Below, piece by piece: positions 7,278-14,727 of a DNA stretch of 14,727 nucleotides. Below the pieces are notes generated by a model. It was given only the letters and a program-made list of their open reading frames with translations. It did no database searches and was not told where the DNA came from. A program made the position numbers and the translations under genes. This DNA is from a virus (taxonomy: Duplodnaviria; Heunggongvirae; Uroviricota; Caudoviricetes): IMG/VR virus record IMGVR_UViG_651053023_000012, positions 1-14,727 of that record, one strand, 5' to 3'. Numbering within the stretch: the stretch's first letter is position 1; each line of letters begins with the position of its first letter.

Positions 7278-8405
7278 TCATGCTTTCCACTTCAGGACAC
7301 CCGAATTTCTCGCGTGCATTAAAAAACGAATCAGCAACAACAGCTGGCTGCCGTGTTTTTCTTCAAAATCTTTTACCCCGGCGTGCAGTTCGTTATGACA
7401 TTTACGGCACAGCGGAATAACAAACAAATCATCAGCCTTTGTTCCCATCCCTCCCAGTCCATGACCAATGATGTGATGCGGATCATCTGCCTGATTACCG
7501 CACGTCATGCATTTCTGCGTTTTTACCCAGCGCGTGTATACAGGCATCTCTTCCCGTTGTGGTTTCTGGCGCTGGAGATACTGAGCCGGTGACTCCGGAT
7601 CAACGGCAATGCTTACCACCGTCTTTTCCTGTGGCGGGTTTTGCTGGTGGGCGTGAGGCAGCGGCGCAAGATTTTTTGTGCGCTGCTTCAGTATGCTGGT
7701 GGCGGTCTGCTCTCCCGGCACGATGTCGCTTTCACGGTACATTGAGCGGATTTTTTCCGCACGCAACCCCAGCGAACGACGTAATACCGCTTCCGGTAGC
7801 GCGTCCGCCACCTGATTGCGGACCGCCCACCAGGATAATTCAGCCAAAGATAATTCACGCTCCTGCGTACCGCTTATTGCGTGACCGATGACGTCAATCA
7901 TCCATGCTGACAGGTTTTGATGAGCAAGTTGCTCGAGTGATTCGGATGTCTGGTCACGTAGCTGGTTGTCGCAGTGCCAGCACAACACCATTGCGCCGGT
8001 ACCATAACAGTGAATGACGGTTTCGCTGTGATGATAATCGCCGTGTGGCCACTGGCAGGATTTAATATGGCGCAACAGCCAGTCAGACAATGCACCAGCA
8101 CCACCAGCAGCACGAATCACCCGTGCGTTACTGAAAAACGGCAGCAATGTTTTGTCTTCCACCAGCGGCTGGCGAGCGGCAGGGACGACTCCGGACGGCA
8201 GACCGCGCATGCTTTTCGGTTCAGGCTCCACCAGCACTCGAGGGTTATGAAATACTTGCATGGATTCACGGCCCGGCCTAAGGACAACCAGCCCAAGTTC
8301 CGGTACCAGAACAGGTCGAAGTAATATCCGCACGTTACCTCCAGATCCGTTGCTGGTATGTGCGGGATGGGCGCGGTGGGCGTTCGGAATAAGGGAGCCT
8401 GACAT
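7278..8405 (-). CDS. DUF968/YdfU-like prophage protein with a C-terminal zinc-finger, HNH-like motif. Start is uncertain (alternative ATG at 8259-8261).
   Basis: C-terminus CMTCGNQADDPHHIIGHGLGGMGTKADDLFVIPLCRKCHNELH. Further Cys/His pairs sit in the middle (HCYGTGAMVLCWHCDNQ). Its position between rusA and hok matches Qin-type prophage order as recalled. Confidence 0.6.
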   Translation of the reverse strand: MSGSLIPNAHRAHPAHTSNGSGGNVRILLRPVLVPELGLVVLRPGRESMQVFHNPRVLVEPEPKSMRGLPSGVVPAARQPLVEDKTLLPFFSNARVIRAAGGAGALSDWLLRHIKSCQWPHGDYHHSETVIHCYGTGAMVLCWHCDNQLRDQTSESLEQLAHQNLSAWMIDVIGHAISGTQERELSLAELSWWAVRNQVADALPEAVLRRSLGLRAEKIRSMYRESDIVPGEQTATSILKQRTKNLAPLPHAHQQNPPQEKTVVSIAVDPESPAQYLQRQKPQREEMPVYTRWVKTQKCMTCGNQADDPHHIIGHGLGGMGTKADDLFVIPLCRKCHNELHAGVKDFEEKHGSQLLLLIRFLMHARNSGVLKWKA

Positions 8406-8613
8406 AGATTATCCAGTGACGATAATCGAGGCTGAGGGCTTTCTTAACCTCGTATCCGCGCCTGCGGTAACACTGAATTATCCATTCCGCCTGCTCTTCA
8501 GTGCATGGAGGATGCTGGAACCAGTCTGATTTGAATACGTGAAAACGCCGTCCGCGCCTGCTGGCAAAGACGGCAGAATCATTAGAATTGTGTAATTTGG
8601 TATCGTGCGCCAT
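8335..8613 (-). CDS. Hypothetical protein (~93 aa from MAHDTKLHNSN...), overlapping the annotated 5' end of the DUF968-like ORF.
   Basis: Open reading frame only; the Shine-Dalgarno is weak. A longer start at 8694 would fall inside the terminator at 8685-8710. No family recognised. Confidence 0.3.
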   Translation of the reverse strand: MAHDTKLHNSNDSAVFASRRGRRFHVFKSDWFQHPPCTEEQAEWIIQCYRRRGYEVKKALSLDYRHWIIYVRLPYSERPPRPSRTYQQRIWR

Positions 8614-8684
8614 CGGTTGTCTCTGCTGGCGCAGCAGGTGCCAGTTGTTCAGGCTGGCGTGCGTATTGTAAACCAGAATGCCAG

Positions 8685-8710
8685 AAAAAAACAAAACCCG
8701 CCGAAGCGGG
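8685..8710 (-). terminator. Intrinsic terminator (minus strand) downstream of the lipoprotein gene.
   Basis: Minus strand: CCCGC-ttcg-GCGGG followed by TTTTGTTTTTTT. Confidence 0.55.
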
Positions 8711-8840
8711 TATGCTAAAACAAACTGAAGGTAATATGCCGGACTTGTAAAGGAACGATAGAATAATTATCGGATTAAATCCTGACTCAATCCATAGGAT
8801 TTACAGCGTTTTCACTAATAATTTACCGTCCCGCTATACA

Positions 8841-9233
8841 TTACTGCCCAGTTTTAACGAAGTTTTTAAAGGAAACAATTGCCTGATAGGGGTTTGGTTG
8901 ACAGCCAAACATATTATCGCAAAAAGGCTTGATGAAAATTCTTGCGGATCCATCTTCATTTGGCATTTTACTCACTTGATAAGCGAGGAATGGGCTATTT
9001 GGTGAAGGGTTATAAGTGGAAATTAGCGTGTTTGTCGCCGTTTGAATTTTCCATGAGGAATTATTAGCCAACCAGAATTGCGCTCGTTTCCAATAAAAGT
9101 CACATTGCTTTTCATCTTTACATGTTAGTGGCTTCATTGCTTCTGCTTTCAACGCTGGATCGACCTTTGCTGCACACCCTCCCAACATTACTGTTGCAAT
9201 CATTACACCTACGACTAAAACAAGTTTCTTCAT
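8841..9233 (-). CDS. Lipoprotein of unknown function (AT-rich moron).
   Basis: Signal peptide MKKLVLVVGVMIATVMLGGC with a lipobox L-G-G-C. The coding sequence is visibly AT-rich. GGGAG lies just upstream of the ATG. Confidence 0.7.
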   Translation of the reverse strand: MKKLVLVVGVMIATVMLGGCAAKVDPALKAEAMKPLTCKDEKQCDFYWKRAQFWLANNSSWKIQTATNTLISTYNPSPNSPFLAYQVSKMPNEDGSARIFIKPFCDNMFGCQPNPYQAIVSFKNFVKTGQ

Positions 9234-9290
9234 CTCCCTGCCCCATCAATAAAAGTTCGGTTCTCTAATAACTAGAGTTAATCAACGGAA

Positions 9291-9308
9291 AAAACGCCGA
9301 AGCGGGTT
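9291..9308 (-). terminator. Weak candidate terminator downstream of hok.
   Basis: Minus strand: CGC-c(UUCG)g-GCG short stem with a UUCG tetraloop, followed by T6. Confidence 0.35.
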
Positions 9309-9376
9309 AAGTGCGGGTGCGTTGAGGATGCCTGACACATCAGAGGTGGCGAGGGATTTCTCCCCCGCCAGGTCTC

Positions 9377-9532
9377 TTACTCCTCAGGTTCGTAAGCTGT
9401 GAAGACAGCGACCTCCGTCTGGCCGGTTCGGATTCGTACCTCGCAGAGGTCTTTCCTCGTTACCAGTGCCGTCACTATGACGGTTAAACAGATGACGATC
9501 AGGACGATTAACATCGCCTTTTGCTGCTTCAT
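9377..9532 (-). CDS. hokD: Hok/Gef-family type I toxin (HokD/RelF-like), 51 aa.
   Basis: MKQQKAMLIVLIVICLTVIVTALVTRKDLCEVRIRTGQTEVAVFTAYEPEE matches HokD as I recall it with a single substitution. GGAG sits 9 nt upstream of the ATG. Confidence 0.9.
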   Translation of the reverse strand: MKQQKAMLIVLIVICLTVIVTALVTRKDLCEVRIRTGQTEVAVFTAYEPEE

Positions 9533-9740
9533 AGCCTGCTTCTCCTTGCCTTTCGGCACGTAAGAGGCTAACCTAGATTTGCCGTTCATAGATTGAGCCT
9601 CAGATTAATGTTAAGCGTCTTGCAGGACGCGTAATGTTAACTGGGGCTTTTCTCTATCTGCCTTTGGTGTTCATGCCTGAGACAGATAGCCTCAAGCACC
9701 CGCAGCCATTCTACTTAACTCCCGTTACCTCGCCAATATG
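9533..9740 (-). promoter_or_regulatory. hok mRNA leader region (expected site of the mok frame and the antisense Sok RNA in hok/sok-type loci); boundaries are approximate.
   Basis: Inferred from hok/sok locus architecture. An in-frame upstream ATG at 9587-9589 gives a 70-codon frame. I could not map the sok promoter by eye. Confidence 0.35.
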
Positions 9741-10156
9741 AAATCAGTCAGAAAGGCGATCCATAAGAACAACAGCAAGGCAATAAATTGCCATTACAGC
9801 AGCAATAGCCAGCGCACATTTGAGAACCAGCACCACAACCTCCTGTATTGGACGTACACCAGTCCTGATAAATATGAGGCTGTCTCGTCAGTGATTCAAT
9901 ACAACTATTGGGTATAGTTTCTGTGATTTTGTTCTGTAGAAATGGAACACAACAACCAGTCACCACCAGCACTTCTTTAAATACGCCAAGTCCGACGCAA
10001 GCTAACCTTCTAGTCCGCTTTGAGCGAAAAGCAGACTGTCACGCGTTGAAGTTAATTGTATTACTTAGATAAACACTATCATTTTCCTGACGTTAAGTTG
10101 TATCTTTGATAGGATTAAAAAACGTATAGATAGCTTATGCTACTGAGGGAATAAAA

Positions 10157-10966
10157 ATGACGAAAATTAGTGAACGATGGAAGCACAATGGCATTACTGA
10201 AGGTTATTGCAATATTTGTGGGAAATATGGCTTGCTCACAAAAGATCATGTTCCTCCAAAGTGCGCCATAACCTTAGGCCCTGTTTTGCAGAAAACAGTT
10301 AGCGAATTTTTTGGTATTCAGGAACCAGTTAAACCATTAAATGCTAAAAATGGCTCTTATTTCAGAACCATTTGCAGCCACTGTAACAATAAGGTATTAG
10401 GTGGGCTCGATGTTGCAATTGAAAATGTAACAAAGTCCTTTAAAGAACAGTTAAGGCGATATATGAATGGTATGAATGTATATCCATTCATTAGAATACC
10501 TTTTGATAGCATATCTTTCACTAAGGCTATGATTGGGCACGTGCTATCAGCAACTTCAGTTGAAGATTGTAAAAAAGAACCCGTAGATAGCCCCTTCTAT
10601 ACACCTTTAAAGGATTATGTTTTGGGTAAAAATTCAAGTTTTGAGGAAACTCATGATATTTACTACTGGTTTTACCCACACAGAATGCACATATCCGCTC
10701 AAAGTGTAGCATTTATGAACGAAGGACATGTGGCATTTATTTGTGCTTTACATTTTTTCCCTATCGGTTTTATTATCACAATGAAAAATGAAGGAACATA
10801 CCCTGCCCACTCTACAAAATTAGAACTTGAAGATAAATTCCTTACATTTAATATGACCTCTATAAATTATGAGTATACGACATTTCCATTTGTAAATCTT
10901 AAGGGAAACCAAATGTATGCGATAAGCAACGGTCATACTTGTGTGAGTTATCCAATAATTAAGTGA
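10157..10966 (+). CDS. Protein with an N-terminal McrA-type HNH nuclease motif and a ~185-aa C-terminal domain of unrecognised family; candidate defence/toxin cargo or free-standing homing endonuclease.
   Basis: CNICGK-x8-DHVPPK-...-N-...-CSHCNN within the first ~80 aa. GAGGG lies 7 nt upstream of the ATG. The gene is visibly AT-rich and on the opposite strand to all neighbouring phage genes. Confidence 0.7.
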   Translation: MTKISERWKHNGITEGYCNICGKYGLLTKDHVPPKCAITLGPVLQKTVSEFFGIQEPVKPLNAKNGSYFRTICSHCNNKVLGGLDVAIENVTKSFKEQLRRYMNGMNVYPFIRIPFDSISFTKAMIGHVLSATSVEDCKKEPVDSPFYTPLKDYVLGKNSSFEETHDIYYWFYPHRMHISAQSVAFMNEGHVAFICALHFFPIGFIITMKNEGTYPAHSTKLELEDKFLTFNMTSINYEYTTFPFVNLKGNQMYAISNGHTCVSYPIIK

Positions 10967-11112
10967 CGGCTAAATCATACAATCTACGCATGTTCACTTT
11001 CTACATATACCATCTATAATGTCCGCTGTTGGCACAAAGCGGACAACCACGCTAGCTCTACCCTGTGCCACAAAAAGTCAATTTGCATCTGAACTAATGC
11101 ACTTGAATCTCG

Positions 11113-11535
11113 TCACTTCAATAAATACCGAACATCCCCCTGATAAAACGACAATATGCGCTGCATAACTTCACTCTTCCGGCACTCGCGACAGATTATG
11201 TTCTGACGCCTGTCGTAGCGACGTATTTCTCCGTCAGGTAATGACCAGATAAGGTCCGAATCAACCGCAGATGGTTTCTTCAGCTTTGCCCTTGAGAGCT
11301 TTTTACGGGCATTTTGCCAGTCCTTACGCGCCTGTTCAGACGGGAATAACCCGTAACCAGAGTTGTATACATCGCCGCTGGCAACCAGCTCTCTTGCGAG
11401 AACGCTCATCAGATATCTTGTCGCACCTGTTTTGACTTCCAGTTGCCGTAACGTCTCACGCCCACTCTGGCGTACGAGTTCAACAACCTGCCCTTTAATT
11501 TTTTCTCGCTCTTCTTGTGTAAAAACTTTTGCCAC
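11113..11535 (-). CDS. Hypothetical protein, possibly DNA-binding (HTH-like N-terminus); last gene of the replication operon. GTG start.
   Basis: The GTG at 11533-11535 is preceded by AGGAGG with 4-nt spacing. Translation is MAKVFTQEEREKIKGQVVELVRQSGRETLRQLEVKTGATRYL.... No Walker motif, so it is not DnaC-like. Confidence 0.55.
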   Translation of the reverse strand: MAKVFTQEEREKIKGQVVELVRQSGRETLRQLEVKTGATRYLMSVLARELVASGDVYNSGYGLFPSEQARKDWQNARKKLSRAKLKKPSAVDSDLIWSLPDGEIRRYDRRQNIICRECRKSEVMQRILSFYQGDVRYLLK

Positions 11536-11575
11536 AAGTCCTCCTGAAAATTACCTCATGACCAGAAATCAACAC

Positions 11576-12646
11576 TTACCCCCTGAAGCCCGGTGGAATT
11601 TCGGTATCCGGTTCAGAAATATGATTCACACAACGCTGGTTGTTCGTGCCGCTTACCGGGAGCAGCCAGGGGTTTTCAAAATTCCGGTCCGGTCCAAAAA
11701 ACGTCGTCGCTCGCTGAACAAATTCCGTTCCCGTTTTCCCGGTAGCCGCAAGGTATCTTGCGTAACGCCTCACGCCATCCAGCATGGCCTCTGGTGACAC
11801 CCCCTCGCGTAATCTGGCCTTCCAAGCACTGAAAGCGGATTTCTTCGGGTTTGCCCCAGCACGCAACGGGTATTCCCGCCAGACCTGTTCGAACACATCC
11901 GGATAATCCACTCGTCCCACAGGCTGCCCGGTGTTTTCCGGGACTACCCGATCGGCTTCCCGCTGAATGGCGGAATCGGCTTCAGGCTGCTGCAGTTGGT
12001 GTGATTGCTCCGGCCTTGCGGTCATCACCTGCTGCACAGCGCCCGAATCGGCTTTCAGCGCATACGCTGAATCGGCTTCCGGTGTCGTGCCTGCTGGCTG
12101 ACCAAGATTGACGGTCTGAACATCCCCTGCCTGGTTCGTGGCGTTTTTTACGCCATGGACCATAGTGTTTTGATCTTCTTGATCTGTATCTTTATCTGTA
12201 TCTTTATCTGTCGTGACTCGTCGTGACATGTGCGTGACATTTCGTGACGCGCCGTGACAATCGCCATTTTGTTCCCGCTTTCTTTCCCTCTCTCGCTGCG
12301 CCCTCTTGCGCTCTGCAGGAGATTTTGCGGTTTGCGAAATATTGCCGTTGTCCTCTTTAAGCACCTGGCGTTTTTCCCATCCAGTGATTAAATCACCATC
12401 AAGTACCCGCCCCTGCATCGTCTGCAAAATTGAATCAATTACCTCTTCTGTCACGTCGAGCGCACTTGCCAAATCTTCTGTCGTGACATCAATGTGACCT
12501 CGCGTGACATTTCGTGACGCGCTCACCAGGAGGTGGATATACACTGCCATCACTGTTGCAATTGGCTGCCCTGACACCCTGGCAATTGTTCGCCACTTAG
12601 GGTCATTTGGCATGTCATGCCATAATCTGAGCCAGGCGTTAGCCAT
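11576..12646 (-). CDS. Putative phage replication initiation protein (YdaU/O-like) with iteron arrays embedded in the coding sequence.
   Basis: The ATG at 12644-12646 is preceded by GAGGTG. It sits downstream of the Cro-like and YdaT-like genes, as in Rac. Two clusters of GTGAC repeats with 10-11 bp periodicity lie inside the gene. Confidence 0.6.
   Translation of the reverse strand: MANAWLRLWHDMPNDPKWRTIARVSGQPIATVMAVYIHLLVSASRNVTRGHIDVTTEDLASALDVTEEVIDSILQTMQGRVLDGDLITGWEKRQVLKEDNGNISQTAKSPAERKRAQRERERKREQNGDCHGASRNVTHMSRRVTTDKDTDKDTDQEDQNTMVHGVKNATNQAGDVQTVNLGQPAGTTPEADSAYALKADSGAVQQVMTARPEQSHQLQQPEADSAIQREADRVVPENTGQPVGRVDYPDVFEQVWREYPLRAGANPKKSAFSAWKARLREGVSPEAMLDGVRRYARYLAATGKTGTEFVQRATTFFGPDRNFENPWLLPVSGTNNQRCVNHISEPDTEIPPGFRG
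12211..12260. repeat. Iteron-like array A: five GTGAC cores at 10-11 bp spacing, preceded by a 12-bp tandem repeat (tctgtatcttta, two copies) at 12182-12205.
   Basis: tcgtgactcg tcgtgacatg tgcgtgacat ttcgtgacgc gccgtgacaa. It shares the 21-mer gcgtgacatttcgtgacgcgc with array B. Confidence 0.5.
12481..12520. repeat. Iteron-like array B: four GTGAC cores at 10-11 bp spacing, plus an inverted core at ~12450.
   Basis: tcgtgacatc aatgtgacct cgcgtgacat ttcgtgacgc. Confidence 0.5.
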
Positions 12647-12717
12647 ACTCACCTCTTCTGATACCGAATCTTTTTACTCACGAGTTGCCGGAAGTGATTC
12701 GATATGGCTATTATCAC

Positions 12718-13143
12718 TCAATGCACTGCCACAGCATTTCCTGCCGGGCCACCACGGTTCATCTGATTGAAACCGGCGATTGCCACTGCGACAAAATCAT
12801 CAGCGTCTCTCACCAGTCGCTCCCGCGTCTCCACCAGCTCCCGAAAATAAGCTGAACTGTGGCTGCGCATTCTGGCCACCAGCAAAGGTGGCATTGCCTT
12901 TTCGATCGCTGGTAACAACGCCTGAATTTTTTCAACTGCATCAGGGGTGTCTTTCTCTACCCAGCGGAAAATTTTCTGGGTATTGCGAGCCAGGGCTTCC
13001 GGATGGCTGTCGTCATACAGTTCTGGGAACATCATACCCAACTCAAAATAAGCCTGGGTTATTCCAGCCGCCGGAACTTTTTCGCCATCAGGACGCGCCC
13101 AGGCATTCATCGCCATGCGGATGTGTTCATGCTTGATTTTCAT
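12718..13143 (-). CDS. YdaT-like protein (proposed CII-analogue/toxic regulator in Rac-type prophages).
   Basis: The N-terminus MKIKHEHI matches what I recall for YdaT, and the size is ~140 aa. It overlaps the upstream Cro-like gene by 17 nt, as a ydaS-ydaT pair would. Confidence 0.6.
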   Translation of the reverse strand: MKIKHEHIRMAMNAWARPDGEKVPAAGITQAYFELGMMFPELYDDSHPEALARNTQKIFRWVEKDTPDAVEKIQALLPAIEKAMPPLLVARMRSHSSAYFRELVETRERLVRDADDFVAVAIAGFNQMNRGGPAGNAVAVH

Positions 13144-13408
13144 GAATCAAGCTCCTAGAAAGTGGTTGTGTTAACGTTTTGGTATCTTCCAGCTCGGGCC
13201 AAATATTCATCCAATCAAAAGGCCTTAGTTGCTGACGTGTAACTTCACCATTACTGGCTCGCTCAATAAGGACGCATAACGATGCCCCTAACACTTGACC
13301 TTTACTCAATGCCTTTCTTAGATAACCGATGCTGGTACCACACTCGCATGCAAACATACGCTGTTCATCTGACGAAAGAGAATTGAGAAATATTCTTAAT
13401 TCTTCCAT
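13127..13408 (-). CDS. YdaS-like HTH protein (Cro analogue), first gene of the rightward early operon.
   Basis: AAGGAG Shine-Dalgarno. HTH segment CGTSIGYLRKALSKGQVLGASLCVLIERASNGEVT. It is divergent from a repressor gene, with operator repeats between them. Confidence 0.7.
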   Translation of the reverse strand: MEELRIFLNSLSSDEQRMFACECGTSIGYLRKALSKGQVLGASLCVLIERASNGEVTRQQLRPFDWMNIWPELEDTKTLTQPLSRSLIHENQA

Positions 13409-13436
13409 AGCTACTCCTTAGTAAACACAGTAAAGA

Positions 13437-13480
13437 ATACCCACAGGTAAACAAAAGTCAATACCCACAGGTTGTTTACC
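13437..13480. promoter_or_regulatory. Operator-like repeats in the divergent repressor/Cro intergenic region (OR-like).
   Basis: ATACCCACAGG occurs twice (13437-13447 and 13461-13471), with an inverted pair ggtaaaca/tgtttacc. The same ATACCCA half-site recurs in the palindromes at 13971-14008. Confidence 0.45.
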
Positions 13481-13508
13481 TTGCGGTAATCGCATCTATT
13501 ATTTACCT

Positions 13509-13928
13509 ATGGACAAATATGAATTTAGACGACAGCAACTCATCAAAATTCGTGATGAGAAATGCGATGGTAAAGCGGTTAACGTGGCCAGAAAGATCGG
13601 GCGCGAGCCTTCTTATGTATCAAGAATGTTGTACCCAGAGGGGAAAAAGGGAAAAAAACGGATCGCTGATGATATGGTGGAGATTATCGAAGAGTCCTTT
13701 GGGTTACCCCGGGGATGGATGGATGGTATCGTTTCATCATCAACGAACACAGCCTCCAGTTATGAAACAAGGGTTCTAACGCCACGACAACGTATTTTTT
13801 TAGATCTCTTAGACGAACTGCCAGAAAGTGAAGCGGATAACTTATTAAAAACTCTTGAAGAGAAAAAACAGTATTACAATATGATCTACGAAGAAATCCG
13901 TAAAAAGAAAGCACAAAACGCATCATAG
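13509..13928 (+). CDS. Prophage repressor (RacR-like, XRE-type HTH, no obvious S24 peptidase domain).
   Basis: HTH segment AVNVARKIGREPSYVSRMLYPEG. There is no Shine-Dalgarno upstream of the ATG, so the transcript may be leaderless as for lambda cI from PRM. The gene is divergent from the Cro-like gene. Confidence 0.65.
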   Translation: MDKYEFRRQQLIKIRDEKCDGKAVNVARKIGREPSYVSRMLYPEGKKGKKRIADDMVEIIEESFGLPRGWMDGIVSSSTNTASSYETRVLTPRQRIFLDLLDELPESEADNLLKTLEEKKQYYNMIYEEIRKKKAQNAS

Positions 13929-13970
13929 CTCACCAAACAACTAGTCACCAGTTAAGACACCGCAAAAAGT

Positions 13971-14008
13971 TACCCATGGGTATTTACTTTTTAAATACCT
14001 ATGGGTAT
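13971..14008. promoter_or_regulatory. Operator-like palindromes downstream of the repressor gene (OL-like), upstream of the leftward early genes.
   Basis: Perfect 12-bp palindrome TACCCATGGGTA (13971-13982) and imperfect ATACCTATGGGTAT (13995-14008), 25 bp apart. Confidence 0.45.
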
Positions 14009-14193
14009 CCTTCTTTTCATACCAACCCACCCCGCCCCACAGAATGCAGGGCAATACTTCGAGTTACCAGGCAGTGGTCAGGGGTTAAGTAGCCAGCCCG
14101 AGGCGTAAGAACATGACGGCAGGGTTCAACTTTAATAACTATGCAGCAGGTTTTTGTTCCGCTACCCCAGCGTTAAGGGGAAATGAGGTCAGC

Positions 14194-14349
14194 ATGGATA
14201 CTATCGATCTTGGCAACAACGAATCTCTGGTGTACGGCGTGTTTCCCAACCAGGACGGCACGTTCACCGCGATGACGTATACCAAAAGCAAAACGTTTAA
14301 AACCGAAAATGGTGCCCGTCGCTGGCTGGAAAGAAACTCAGGTGAGTGA
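14194..14349 (+). CDS. Small protein, YdaF-like (51 aa).
   Basis: ATG at 14194 preceded by GAGG. Translation MDTIDLGNNESLVYGVFPNQDGTFTAMTYTKSKTFKTENGARRWLERNSGE matches my recollection of Rac YdaF (memory only). Confidence 0.55.
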   Translation: MDTIDLGNNESLVYGVFPNQDGTFTAMTYTKSKTFKTENGARRWLERNSGE

Positions 14350-14350
14350 T

Positions 14351-14479
14351 ATGGATTTCGACACAATCATGGAAAAGGCTTACGAAGAATACTTCGAAGA
14401 CCTTGCCGAAGGCGAAGAAGCTCTCAGCTTCAGTGAGTTTAAACAGGCGCTTTCCAGCTCGGCAAAATCTAACGGCTGA
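14351..14479 (+). CDS. Small acidic protein, YdaG-like (42 aa).
   Basis: ATG one nt after the preceding stop. Translation MDFDTIMEKAYEEYFEDLAEGEEALSFSEFKQALSSSAKSNG. It is below the ORF-track cut-off; assignment is from memory. Confidence 0.45.
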   Translation: MDFDTIMEKAYEEYFEDLAEGEEALSFSEFKQALSSSAKSNG

Positions 14480-14508
14480 TAAGCGAAGTAGCACCGCGAG
14501 GAATCAGT

Positions 14509-14727
14509 ATGCAGAAACGAGAACCCGTCATAATCGCGCCAGACTATACCGATGATGAACTTTATGAGTGGATGCGCCAGAAAATTAATGCAGCGCAGGA
14601 TCTGAAATGGGCTAATGAAGCCAGGGCTAAGCAGGCTGAAAATCTGTCCGCTCTGGAGCAGGATATCACCAATCTGGAAAAAGCAGCGGCATTAAGCATT
14701 GCCAGAATGATTACATACCCGCGTTAA
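14509..14727 (+). CDS. Hypothetical early-left operon protein (72 aa); its stop coincides with the window end.
   Basis: Open reading frame in the same operon orientation as the YdaF/YdaG-like genes. No recognisable motif. Confidence 0.45.
   Translation: MQKREPVIIAPDYTDDELYEWMRQKINAAQDLKWANEARAKQAENLSALEQDITNLEKAAALSIARMITYPR

Follow-up and report, generated by a model that had tools for sequence, protein, structure and literature searches.

A candidate replication origin with two arrays of single-turn iterons inside the initiator gene of a lambdoid prophage

Why should a phage replication gene carry, among its own codons, two clusters of a five-letter repeat whose units follow one another at about one turn of the DNA helix? 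The question is raised by a stretch of Caudoviricetes DNA (IMG/VR record IMGVR_UViG_651053023_000012, positions 1 to 14,727; below, the window is this whole stretch of 14,727 nucleotides), which most likely comes from a prophage of the common Escherichia coli lambdoid type. An earlier note, made from the letters alone, had interpreted the clusters as a candidate origin inside a replication-protein gene. Our analysis supports that interpretation: the gene product matches the initiator family phrog_3729, the gene has a cI/cro/cII-like/rep setting, selection on the repeats acts on nucleotides, and a conserved AT-rich tract adjoins them. From the window and its relatives we estimate a probability of about 0.8 that the region is the replication origin of the prophage, embedded in the gene of its own initiator. 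In the best reading, the origin would consist of one array (array B) and an unwinding element beside it, with a second, conserved array (array A) as an auxiliary. An iteron origin in an initiator gene is a known kind of element; here it would belong to an uncharacterised, widespread family and have an unusual layout with two arrays of one-turn iterons.

The gene, here called rep, and the elements of the candidate origin, all of which lie inside it, are:

11576..12646, minus strand: replication initiator gene rep, 356 amino acids, ATG at 12646 and stop at 11576-11578 (open reading frame and translation)
12480..12523, minus strand: array A, four direct GTCAC(G) units in the codons for amino acids 43-56 (ASRNVTRGHIDVTT); cores, on the gene strand, at 12514-12518, 12504-12508, 12494-12498 and 12483-12487
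12447..12457, plus strand: a single inverted unit, TGTCACG, core at 12450-12454, encoding D-V-T of 'ALDVTEE'
12210..12262, minus strand: array B, five direct GTCACG units in the codons for amino acids 130-146, part of a predicted disordered linker; cores, on the gene strand, at 12254-12258, 12244-12248, 12234-12238, 12223-12227 and 12213-12217
12165..12212, minus strand: AT-rich, purine-rich tract of GATAAAGATACA repeats encoding DKDTDKDTDQEDQ, the candidate DNA-unwinding element
12132..12162, no strand: imperfect 13-bp inverted repeat with a perfect 6-bp core (TGGCGT-AAAAA-ACGCCA), directly after the AT-rich tract

Read on the plus strand, GTGAC starts at 12213, 12223, 12234, 12244 and 12254 in array B (spacings of 10, 11, 10 and 10 bp) and at 12483, 12494, 12504 and 12514 in array A (11, 10 and 10 bp). 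Array A is upstream in the gene, and 260-270 bp separate the two. An exact 21-mer, GCGTGACATTTCGTGACGCGC, is common to both (12232-12252 and 12502-12522), with 0 copies expected by chance. Conservation extends to a 6-mer core, GTCACG as read on the gene strand, with the final G present in 88% of units. Same-strand chains of a 5-mer at 10-11 bp spacing reach lengths of 5 and 4 in the window, while the longest in 500 dinucleotide-preserving shuffles of it was 3, none reaching 4 or more. Positions and shuffles thus bear out the earlier description of five and four GTGAC cores some 270 bp apart with a shared 21-mer, and the 12-bp tandem encoding DKDTDKDTD that it placed beside the array is found at 12177-12212. 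All 47 distinct variants of the gene in E. coli have these copy numbers of four and five. In the complete genome of Escherichia phage Tritos, an isolated phage whose replication protein is 100% identical to the rep product, arrays A and B are the only clusters of the core.

Spaced at 10-11 bp, which is not divisible by three, the nine cores of the window fall in different reading frames (2, 0, 1 and 0 in array A; 1, 2, 0, 2 and 0 in array B); in 25 relatives the cores are spread about evenly over the three frames. The arrays are therefore not a codon repeat. The same conclusion emerges from a codon alignment of 25 genes of the GTCAC clade, all less than 93% identical to each other in nucleotides, in which strong synonymous conservation was defined as the same codon in at least 90% of sequences. 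With the two isolated exceptions of Asp11 (GAC) and Glu at position 104 (GAA), such codons are found in only four places: array A, the inverted unit, array B and the AT-rich tract. Codon choice elsewhere is saturated, with typically four to six codons per conserved residue and 30-60% for the commonest. In array A, Val47 GTC, Thr48 ACG, Gly50 GGT, His51 CAC and Val54 GTC are each fixed in 24/24 sequences, and Ser44 TCA (92%) and Thr55 ACG (23/24, 96%) nearly so; in array B, Ser141 TCA and Val144 GTC are fixed in 25/25. The codons that spell the core have a background use of 14-37% in the same genes. At the inverted unit, Val65 is GTG in 20/20 clade members that have Val, against a background of 37%, and in the AT-rich tract the GAT and AAA codons are fixed. 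Between two cores, Arg is encoded by CGA, CGC, CGT or CGG without restriction. The linker peptide encoded by array B differs among relatives; the DNA core is kept. Judged from these alignments, selection on the arrays is at the nucleotide level, and the possibility raised in the earlier note, that the repeat is conserved only as amino acids, is rejected by the three frames, the fixed synonymous codons and the changes in the linker peptide.

The N-terminal domain of the initiator recurs in more than 800 relatives; W[LF]RLWHDM and DPKWRTI are its motifs. A scan with one genome per species yielded 62 loci in Gamma-, Beta- and Alphaproteobacteria, Acidobacteria and Planctomycetes, 55 of which entered the array statistics. 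Nearly all loci have two phased arrays, at about nt 125-170 and about nt 340-460 of the gene. The core is GTCACG in 27 loci, among them those of Escherichia, Pseudomonas, Bordetella, Stenotrophomonas and Acidovorax; other clades have their own cores (GTAACG; CGAACGC or GGAACGC; GTGACGC; CTACGTA), and Ralstonia phage Firinga, at 38% identity, has 5+4 units of GCAACG. Specifically, the core was defined de novo in array B and then sought in region A of the same genome, where it recurs at least twice in 48/55 loci; permuting the cores among loci (2000 trials) gave a mean of 19 and a maximum of 31 matching loci. Outside these regions each gene has 0-4 copies (0-1 in most cases), and one or more inverted copies occur in region A of most loci of the GTCAC clade. 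Of the two explanations offered in the earlier note, a bipartite origin or a duplicated segment, a recent private duplication is excluded, and both arrays prove to be conserved family-wide.

The class of the core follows the protein: with array-encoded residues excluded, it is that of the nearest protein neighbour in 44/52 loci. It is not tied to the host, as Pseudomonas, Acidovorax, Serratia and Pantoea each have more than one class and a single class extends over several phyla. Relatives differ in the gene downstream of rep (primase/helicase, DnaB, DnaC-like or none), and since only the N-terminal domain accompanies the arrays throughout, we infer that it is their reader. An example is Pseudomonas phage phita81A, in which only the N-terminal 138 residues are shared (69.5% amino-acid identity); the C-terminal half is another one, and the next gene encodes a primase/helicase. 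The phage keeps four units per array, the inverted unit and the AT-rich tract, with a different linker peptide. None of the classical model phages carries this N-terminal domain.

Within E. coli the gene is common, occurring in 2534 of 5426 complete genomes (47%) and in up to four places per genome; it is 100% identical in strain LF82, and its RefSeq label in E. coli genomes is 'hypothetical protein'. A scan of IMG/VR gave 80 loci, nearly all of them E. coli copies of 98-100% identity, which served for the analysis of indel polymorphism and not of divergence. Database entries for the protein are in many cases labelled 'partial' and come from short contigs, a hint that the multi-copy rep gene is a frequent break point in assemblies.

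Two further observations concern the repeats themselves. In E. albertii (gene nt 128-180) and in E. coli O157 protein P0018, a 21-bp (7-codon) insertion in array A adds exactly two GTCAC units, giving a six-unit array and the peptide TCHGVSL. Two units of 10 and 11 bp make up seven codons, so array A can grow with its reading frame and helical phase kept. A possible third iteron set, four copies of GAATCGGCTT (GAAGCCGATTC on the gene strand) at 11950-12082, was set aside as a duplication at the protein level or by slippage: its copies stand 24, 72 and 24 nt apart, all distances divisible by three, and encode in-frame EADSA-type peptides (PEADSA, KADSG, PEADSA, EADR), which argues for a peptide-level duplication rather than iterons. 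These copies lie inside a clade-specific insertion, which the other aligned homologs do not have.

The AT-rich tandem encodes amino acids 147-160, in the disordered linker. The GC content of 0.33-0.35 at 12160-12219 is the lowest of the profile over 11400-13000, and the 40-nt segment of the gene with the lowest value (0.25) starts 5 nt past array B. Across the 55 loci, the 40 nt after array B have a mean GC content of 0.32 vs. 0.55 for the whole gene and are 75% purine on the coding strand. The minimum-GC 40-nt segment of the gene starts between -10 and +40 nt from the end of array B in 47/55 loci, a pattern that holds even in hosts of 65-69% GC. By this measure the AT-rich unwinding element that the earlier note had proposed to look for near the arrays is the 12-bp tandem itself, conserved across the family. 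Length polymorphism among near-identical E. coli copies is that of the candidate unwinding element: in the three length variants checked, the indels are steps of 6 or 12 bp and occur only in the GATAAAGATACA tract.

The inverted repeat that follows is predicted to be stable as single-stranded DNA (-8.7 kcal/mol, z -2.69), with 0/200 shuffles equally stable. Inverted repeats are enriched at this position in the family, with a mean best perfect stem of 5.6 bp vs. 4.4 bp in the control (55 loci; Mann-Whitney p 1e-11, uncorrected for relatedness).

GATC (Dam) sites are present in the AT-rich tract at 12172-12175 and 12181-12184, and also in the tracts of six further loci, enterobacterial, Aeromonas and a few others. 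Their recurrence hints at methylation or SeqA input; such an input has been reported for Stx-phage origins (PMC7466680).

The protein encoded by rep has the marks of an initiator. It matches phrog_3729, 'replication initiation protein', over its full length (E 1e-257), and the identical Tritos protein is annotated 'Replication protein, N-terminal phage replisome organiser'. Two parts of it bear on the candidate origin:

12362..12646, minus strand: N-terminal winged-helix domain, amino acids 1-95, presumed reader of the iterons
11579..11653, minus strand: C-terminal tail, amino acids 332-356, ending …VNHISEPDTEIPPGFRG, resembling the C-terminal tail of host DnaT

An AlphaFold2 model predicts a confident winged helix at residues 1-95, with helices at 56-63 and 67-77 and a wing at 78-88, followed by a basic helix (110-127), a disordered region (128-245) and a small helical bundle (249-316). 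The residues encoded by array A (43-56) form the end of helix 29-45 and the loop preceding the helix-turn-helix. Over the codons of array B the per-residue confidence (pLDDT) is low, and from residue 143 onward it stays under 50 over most of the linker. The N-terminal fold is a winged helix that appears closest to the DnaD N-terminal domain, the match being of the generic winged-helix kind; a Foldseek search of the initiator against the PDB returned nothing under E 0.5, only generic winged-helix regulators, and the fold matches include the CRP, MarR and ArsR families.

The relationship to lambda O considered in the earlier note does not extend to the protein: homology is undetectable with hhalign of the family profile (probability 0.1%), and Pfam assigns the initiator to no family, Phage_rep_O included. 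The same search disposes of DUF1376, which had also been suggested and which stays unmatched at E values up to 0.01 in the initiator and 65 relatives, the other matches being to DnaT or due to chance. Likeness to replisome organisers, a third suggestion, was borne out in part. TIGR01714, the model of the organiser N-terminal domain, scores 15.4 bits against a cut-off of 49.8, so that formal membership fails; the weak alignment nevertheless covers the model in full (1-119 of 119), and the winged helix may resemble that of DnaD. TIGR01714 is matched by 8/66 relatives at E up to 0.1, the best value being 0.004; its Pfam counterpart PF09681 is unmatched in the initiator.

At its other end the initiator terminates in SEPDTEIPPGFRG, nearly identical to the C-terminal tail of the host primosomal protein DnaT. 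The match is limited to the C-terminal 22-25 residues (E 0.0015-0.06): phmmer against the PDB aligned 6aep_A, 2ru8_A and 9zbt_D over this part, and in the NCBIfam DnaT model (NF002770) the tail aligns to positions 156-179 of 179. In comparison with E. coli DnaT, the similarity is to the extreme C-terminus and takes in ~23 residues (SEPD..IPPGFRG). The full DNA-binding domain of DnaT is present in many of the relatives, with PF17948 matched by 16/66 and NF002770 by 23/66; this initiator has the tail only and leaves Pfam DnaT unmatched. The C-terminal domain of DnaT forms filaments on single-stranded DNA, and its N-terminal domain has been proposed to recruit DnaB/DnaC (PMC13377028).

The layout as a whole resembles that of lambda, whose origin, midway along gene O, is made up of iterons and an AT-rich tract and whose O protein also binds AT-rich single-stranded DNA (PMC7466680). 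In gene O the iterons (nt 349-433) are followed by 'acacaaaagacactattacaaaagaaaaaagaaaagatta' (DTKDTITKEKRKD) and then by a palindrome around GAATTC. Array B occupies the same relative position (nt 389-434 of rep). In both genes the order is direct repeats, an AT-rich tract with a purine-rich coding strand, and an inverted repeat. The tract encodes a K/D/T/E-rich linker in either case, and both initiator genes are downstream of cro and cII and transcribed from pR. Lambda-type origins as a functional class have at least 3-4 direct repeats inside the initiator gene and an AT-rich tract directly beside them; here there are 5 + 4 units and a tract with a GC content of 0.25-0.35 at 12160-12219. Differences are equally clear. 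The annotated lambda iterons are 18 bp long and spaced at 20-24 bp, and Stx-phage variants of the lambda type have six, whereas the units here are 10-11 bp with a 6-bp core. A second array is found 260-270 bp upstream, inside the codons of the DNA-binding domain, and in place of a P or DnaC-type loader gene there is the DnaT-like tail on the initiator.

The replisome organisers of TP901-1, Tuc2009 and SPP1 bind direct repeats in their own genes, these repeats being the origins; in SPP1 an AT-rich unwinding element accompanies the direct repeats of the origins (PMC8965321, PMC6316719). Repeats within the organiser's own gene, a property of that family (PMC8965321), are found here too, together with the weak full-length TIGR01714 match and a possibly DnaD-like fold, which recall TP901-1 ORF13, Tuc2009 Rep2009 and SPP1 gp38. 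In contrast to those Gram-positive systems, the hosts here are Proteobacteria, Acidobacteria and Planctomycetes, and the second repeat set of SPP1 (oriR) lies ~13 kb away, not in the same gene. The nearest protein relatives in kind are the organisers of Gram-positive phages, with a model score that falls short of membership.

Two separated clusters of one initiator-binding repeat are also a feature of the iteron plasmids P1 (incC/incA) and F (ori2 incB/incC) and of phage P4 (ori/crr). One cluster stands beside the unwinding region in these replicons, and the other is auxiliary or regulatory. Their clusters flank rep or lie outside it and have units of 17-22 bp (8 bp in P4), whereas here both clusters are in-frame coding sequence at single-turn spacing. 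Compared with the described cases that we found, the family is set apart by its 10-11 bp units with a 6-bp core, by having two arrays per gene, by the location of one array inside the codons of the DNA-binding domain and by the switching of class by both arrays in concert. The literature that we searched, in an incomplete search, contained no description of this family's origin.

The setting of rep is that of an immunity-replication module (cI / cro / cII-like / rep). The neighbouring genes, and a distant one that bears on the state of the prophage, are:

13509-13928, plus strand: cI-like repressor
13127-13408, minus strand: cro/YdaS-like gene
12718-13143, minus strand: cII/YdaT-like gene
11113-11535, minus strand: DUF977/LygF Ren-like gene, next after rep
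702-2132, minus strand: 476-amino-acid open reading frame, a DUF1441 N-terminal piece joined to the C-terminal half of tail-tip protein J

Neither in the window nor in Tritos is rep followed by a helicase or loader gene; it is the sole replication gene of the complete Tritos genome. Tritos is an integrating phage with int/xis and has no partition genes; its terminase genes are ~30 kb from the arrays. In the window, the 476-residue fusion directly adjoins lysis genes (holin, M15 peptidase) and a tail-fibre assembly gene; the minus-strand segments 1-633 and 3176-4246 belong to the same observation. A DUF1441/protein J fusion beside lysis genes points to a large deletion that removed head and tail genes. 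The prophage would then probably be defective in this copy, although rep and the candidate origin are intact in it.

Other features of the window were recorded in passing. Three prophage-borne tRNA genes (Gly-TCC, Thr-TGT, Met-CAT) occupy 4672-4981 on the minus strand, between the AraC-like/Q region and the lysis genes. A toxin/antisense RNA locus of hok/sok type is found at 9377-9701 (minus strand), with the Hok/Gef reading frame at 9377-9589 and the sok RNA at 9527-9701. An Rfam match to the IS009 RNA (230 bits) covers 41-239 (minus strand), within or over the region of the tail-fibre assembly gene. Between LygF and hok, a 269-amino-acid reading frame at 10157-10966 (phrog_21495, E 9e-195) runs on the plus strand, against the direction of the replication genes; its place in Tritos is taken by another hypothetical gene, which is longer.

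A mechanism can be proposed from these parts. Transcription from pR would express cro, the cII-like gene and rep, and would cross the origin. The N-terminal winged-helix domain would bind the phased units along one face of the DNA, building an O-some-like oligomer on array B, and this complex would destabilise the adjacent GATAAAGATACA tract. The C-terminal module, consisting of the helical bundle and the DnaT-like PPGFRG tail, could then engage the opened strand and the host primosome or DnaB-DnaC. Such recruitment would explain how the phage manages without a helicase or loader gene of its own, and the gene content suggests an initiator-only replicon that borrows the DnaT/primosome route of its host.

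Several points weigh against an origin at this place and of this design. Array A is missing in five homologs and is therefore not universally required, and clear arrays of any kind are missing in five other loci and in a Microcystis phage. The sequences compared are phylogenetically related, such that the statistics overstate their independence. The N-terminal domain scores under the threshold of the replisome-organiser model, and its fold match is to generic winged helices. The prophage in the window looks defective, and its own copy of the origin may be silent. Finally, we found no literature report of initiator-repeat binding or of origin firing for any member of the family.

The role of array A admits more than one view. 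By its sequence it would be a second binding cluster for the same protein, and as it is under selection yet absent from several lineages, we regard it as auxiliary. Candidate roles are an enhancer or auxiliary site that loops to array B, or a site of negative control by titration or handcuffing. One explanation with a fair claim to attention, although we consider it on balance doubtful, is that array B and the AT-rich tract are the origin and array A is a negative-control locus, acting by titration, by handcuffing or by blocking pR transcription or rep translation. Several observations would fit: the AT-rich tract does not adjoin array A, several lineages keep array B without it, the extra inverted unit is found at array A and not at array B, and protein bound so early in the coding sequence of rep could hinder transcription. 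Second iteron arrays also serve copy control in P1 and F-type plasmids. However, nothing in the sequence separates positive from negative action, and restraint of copy number would be of little benefit to lytic phage replication. Negative control by array A would in any case refine, and not replace, the reading of the region as an origin inside its initiator's gene.

A bolder version of that reading, which we consider unlikely, is a truly bipartite origin whose upstream array is written in the codons of the very domain that reads it, with the two arrays cooperating by looping or handcuffing. A change of iteron (GTCACG, GTAACG, CGAACGC, GCAACG) would then necessarily alter a loop on the surface of the reader, and binding site and protein could change specificity in step. 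Given how common the rep gene is in E. coli, with up to four places per genome, an induced prophage could cross-talk with co-resident origins of the same class; if so, it could fire them or be titrated by them, defective copies included.

It is improbable that the arrays are autoregulatory operators, or sites for another phage or host protein, with the true origin elsewhere. Winged-helix proteins are usually transcription regulators, and the fold matches to CRP, MarR and ArsR would suit such a role. Against it, the arrays are inside coding sequence and not at a promoter; a sigma-70 promoter and terminator scan of 11000-13600 stayed at chance level, its one relevant match being the inverted repeat at 12132-12162. 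The class of the core follows the clade of the initiator rather than the host, neighbouring genes vary, and the linked AT-rich tract and inverted repeat reproduce the layout of an origin. A DnaA-box scan found none near the arrays and a window-wide count at chance level, and the whole Tritos genome contains no further cluster of the core.

There is very little to be said for a protein-level repeat (SRNVT or VTT motifs) or a neutral internal duplication devoid of DNA function. Both arrays do encode 'ASRNVT' in the same frame and share the 21-mer, and SRNVT-like peptides recur in relatives. Yet the cores occupy all three frames, synonymous sites of core codons are fixed where other conserved residues use four to six codons, array B is in a predicted disordered linker whose peptide differs among relatives, and the cores switch together in both arrays between clades. 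Just as implausible is a centromere-like (parC-type) element, a packaging or terminase site or an mRNA structure: the two clusters of about five 10-11 bp direct repeats recall parC of plasmid R1, but gene context rejects a parC-like centromere or pac site, as the integrating phage Tritos lacks partition genes, its terminase genes are far off and the arrays travel with the initiator domain and not with packaging genes, and the mRNA idea was dropped on an ordinary RNA fold of the array region (z -0.97).

Overall, a 'hypothetical protein' of 2534 of the 5426 complete E. coli genomes, together with a family of more than 800 relatives in several phyla, is assigned a defined origin layout whose individual base pairs are open to mutation. 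The family also illustrates that a DNA element can dictate protein sequence, since the invariant residues in the disordered linker are the bases of iterons. It also provides a candidate for a phage replicon that has an initiator only and may use the DnaT/primosome route of its host. With at least five iteron classes on one protein scaffold and both arrays switching together, it amounts to a natural experiment in origin specificity, and it allows tests of initiator-origin co-evolution, of replication incompatibility and of cross-activation between co-resident prophages.

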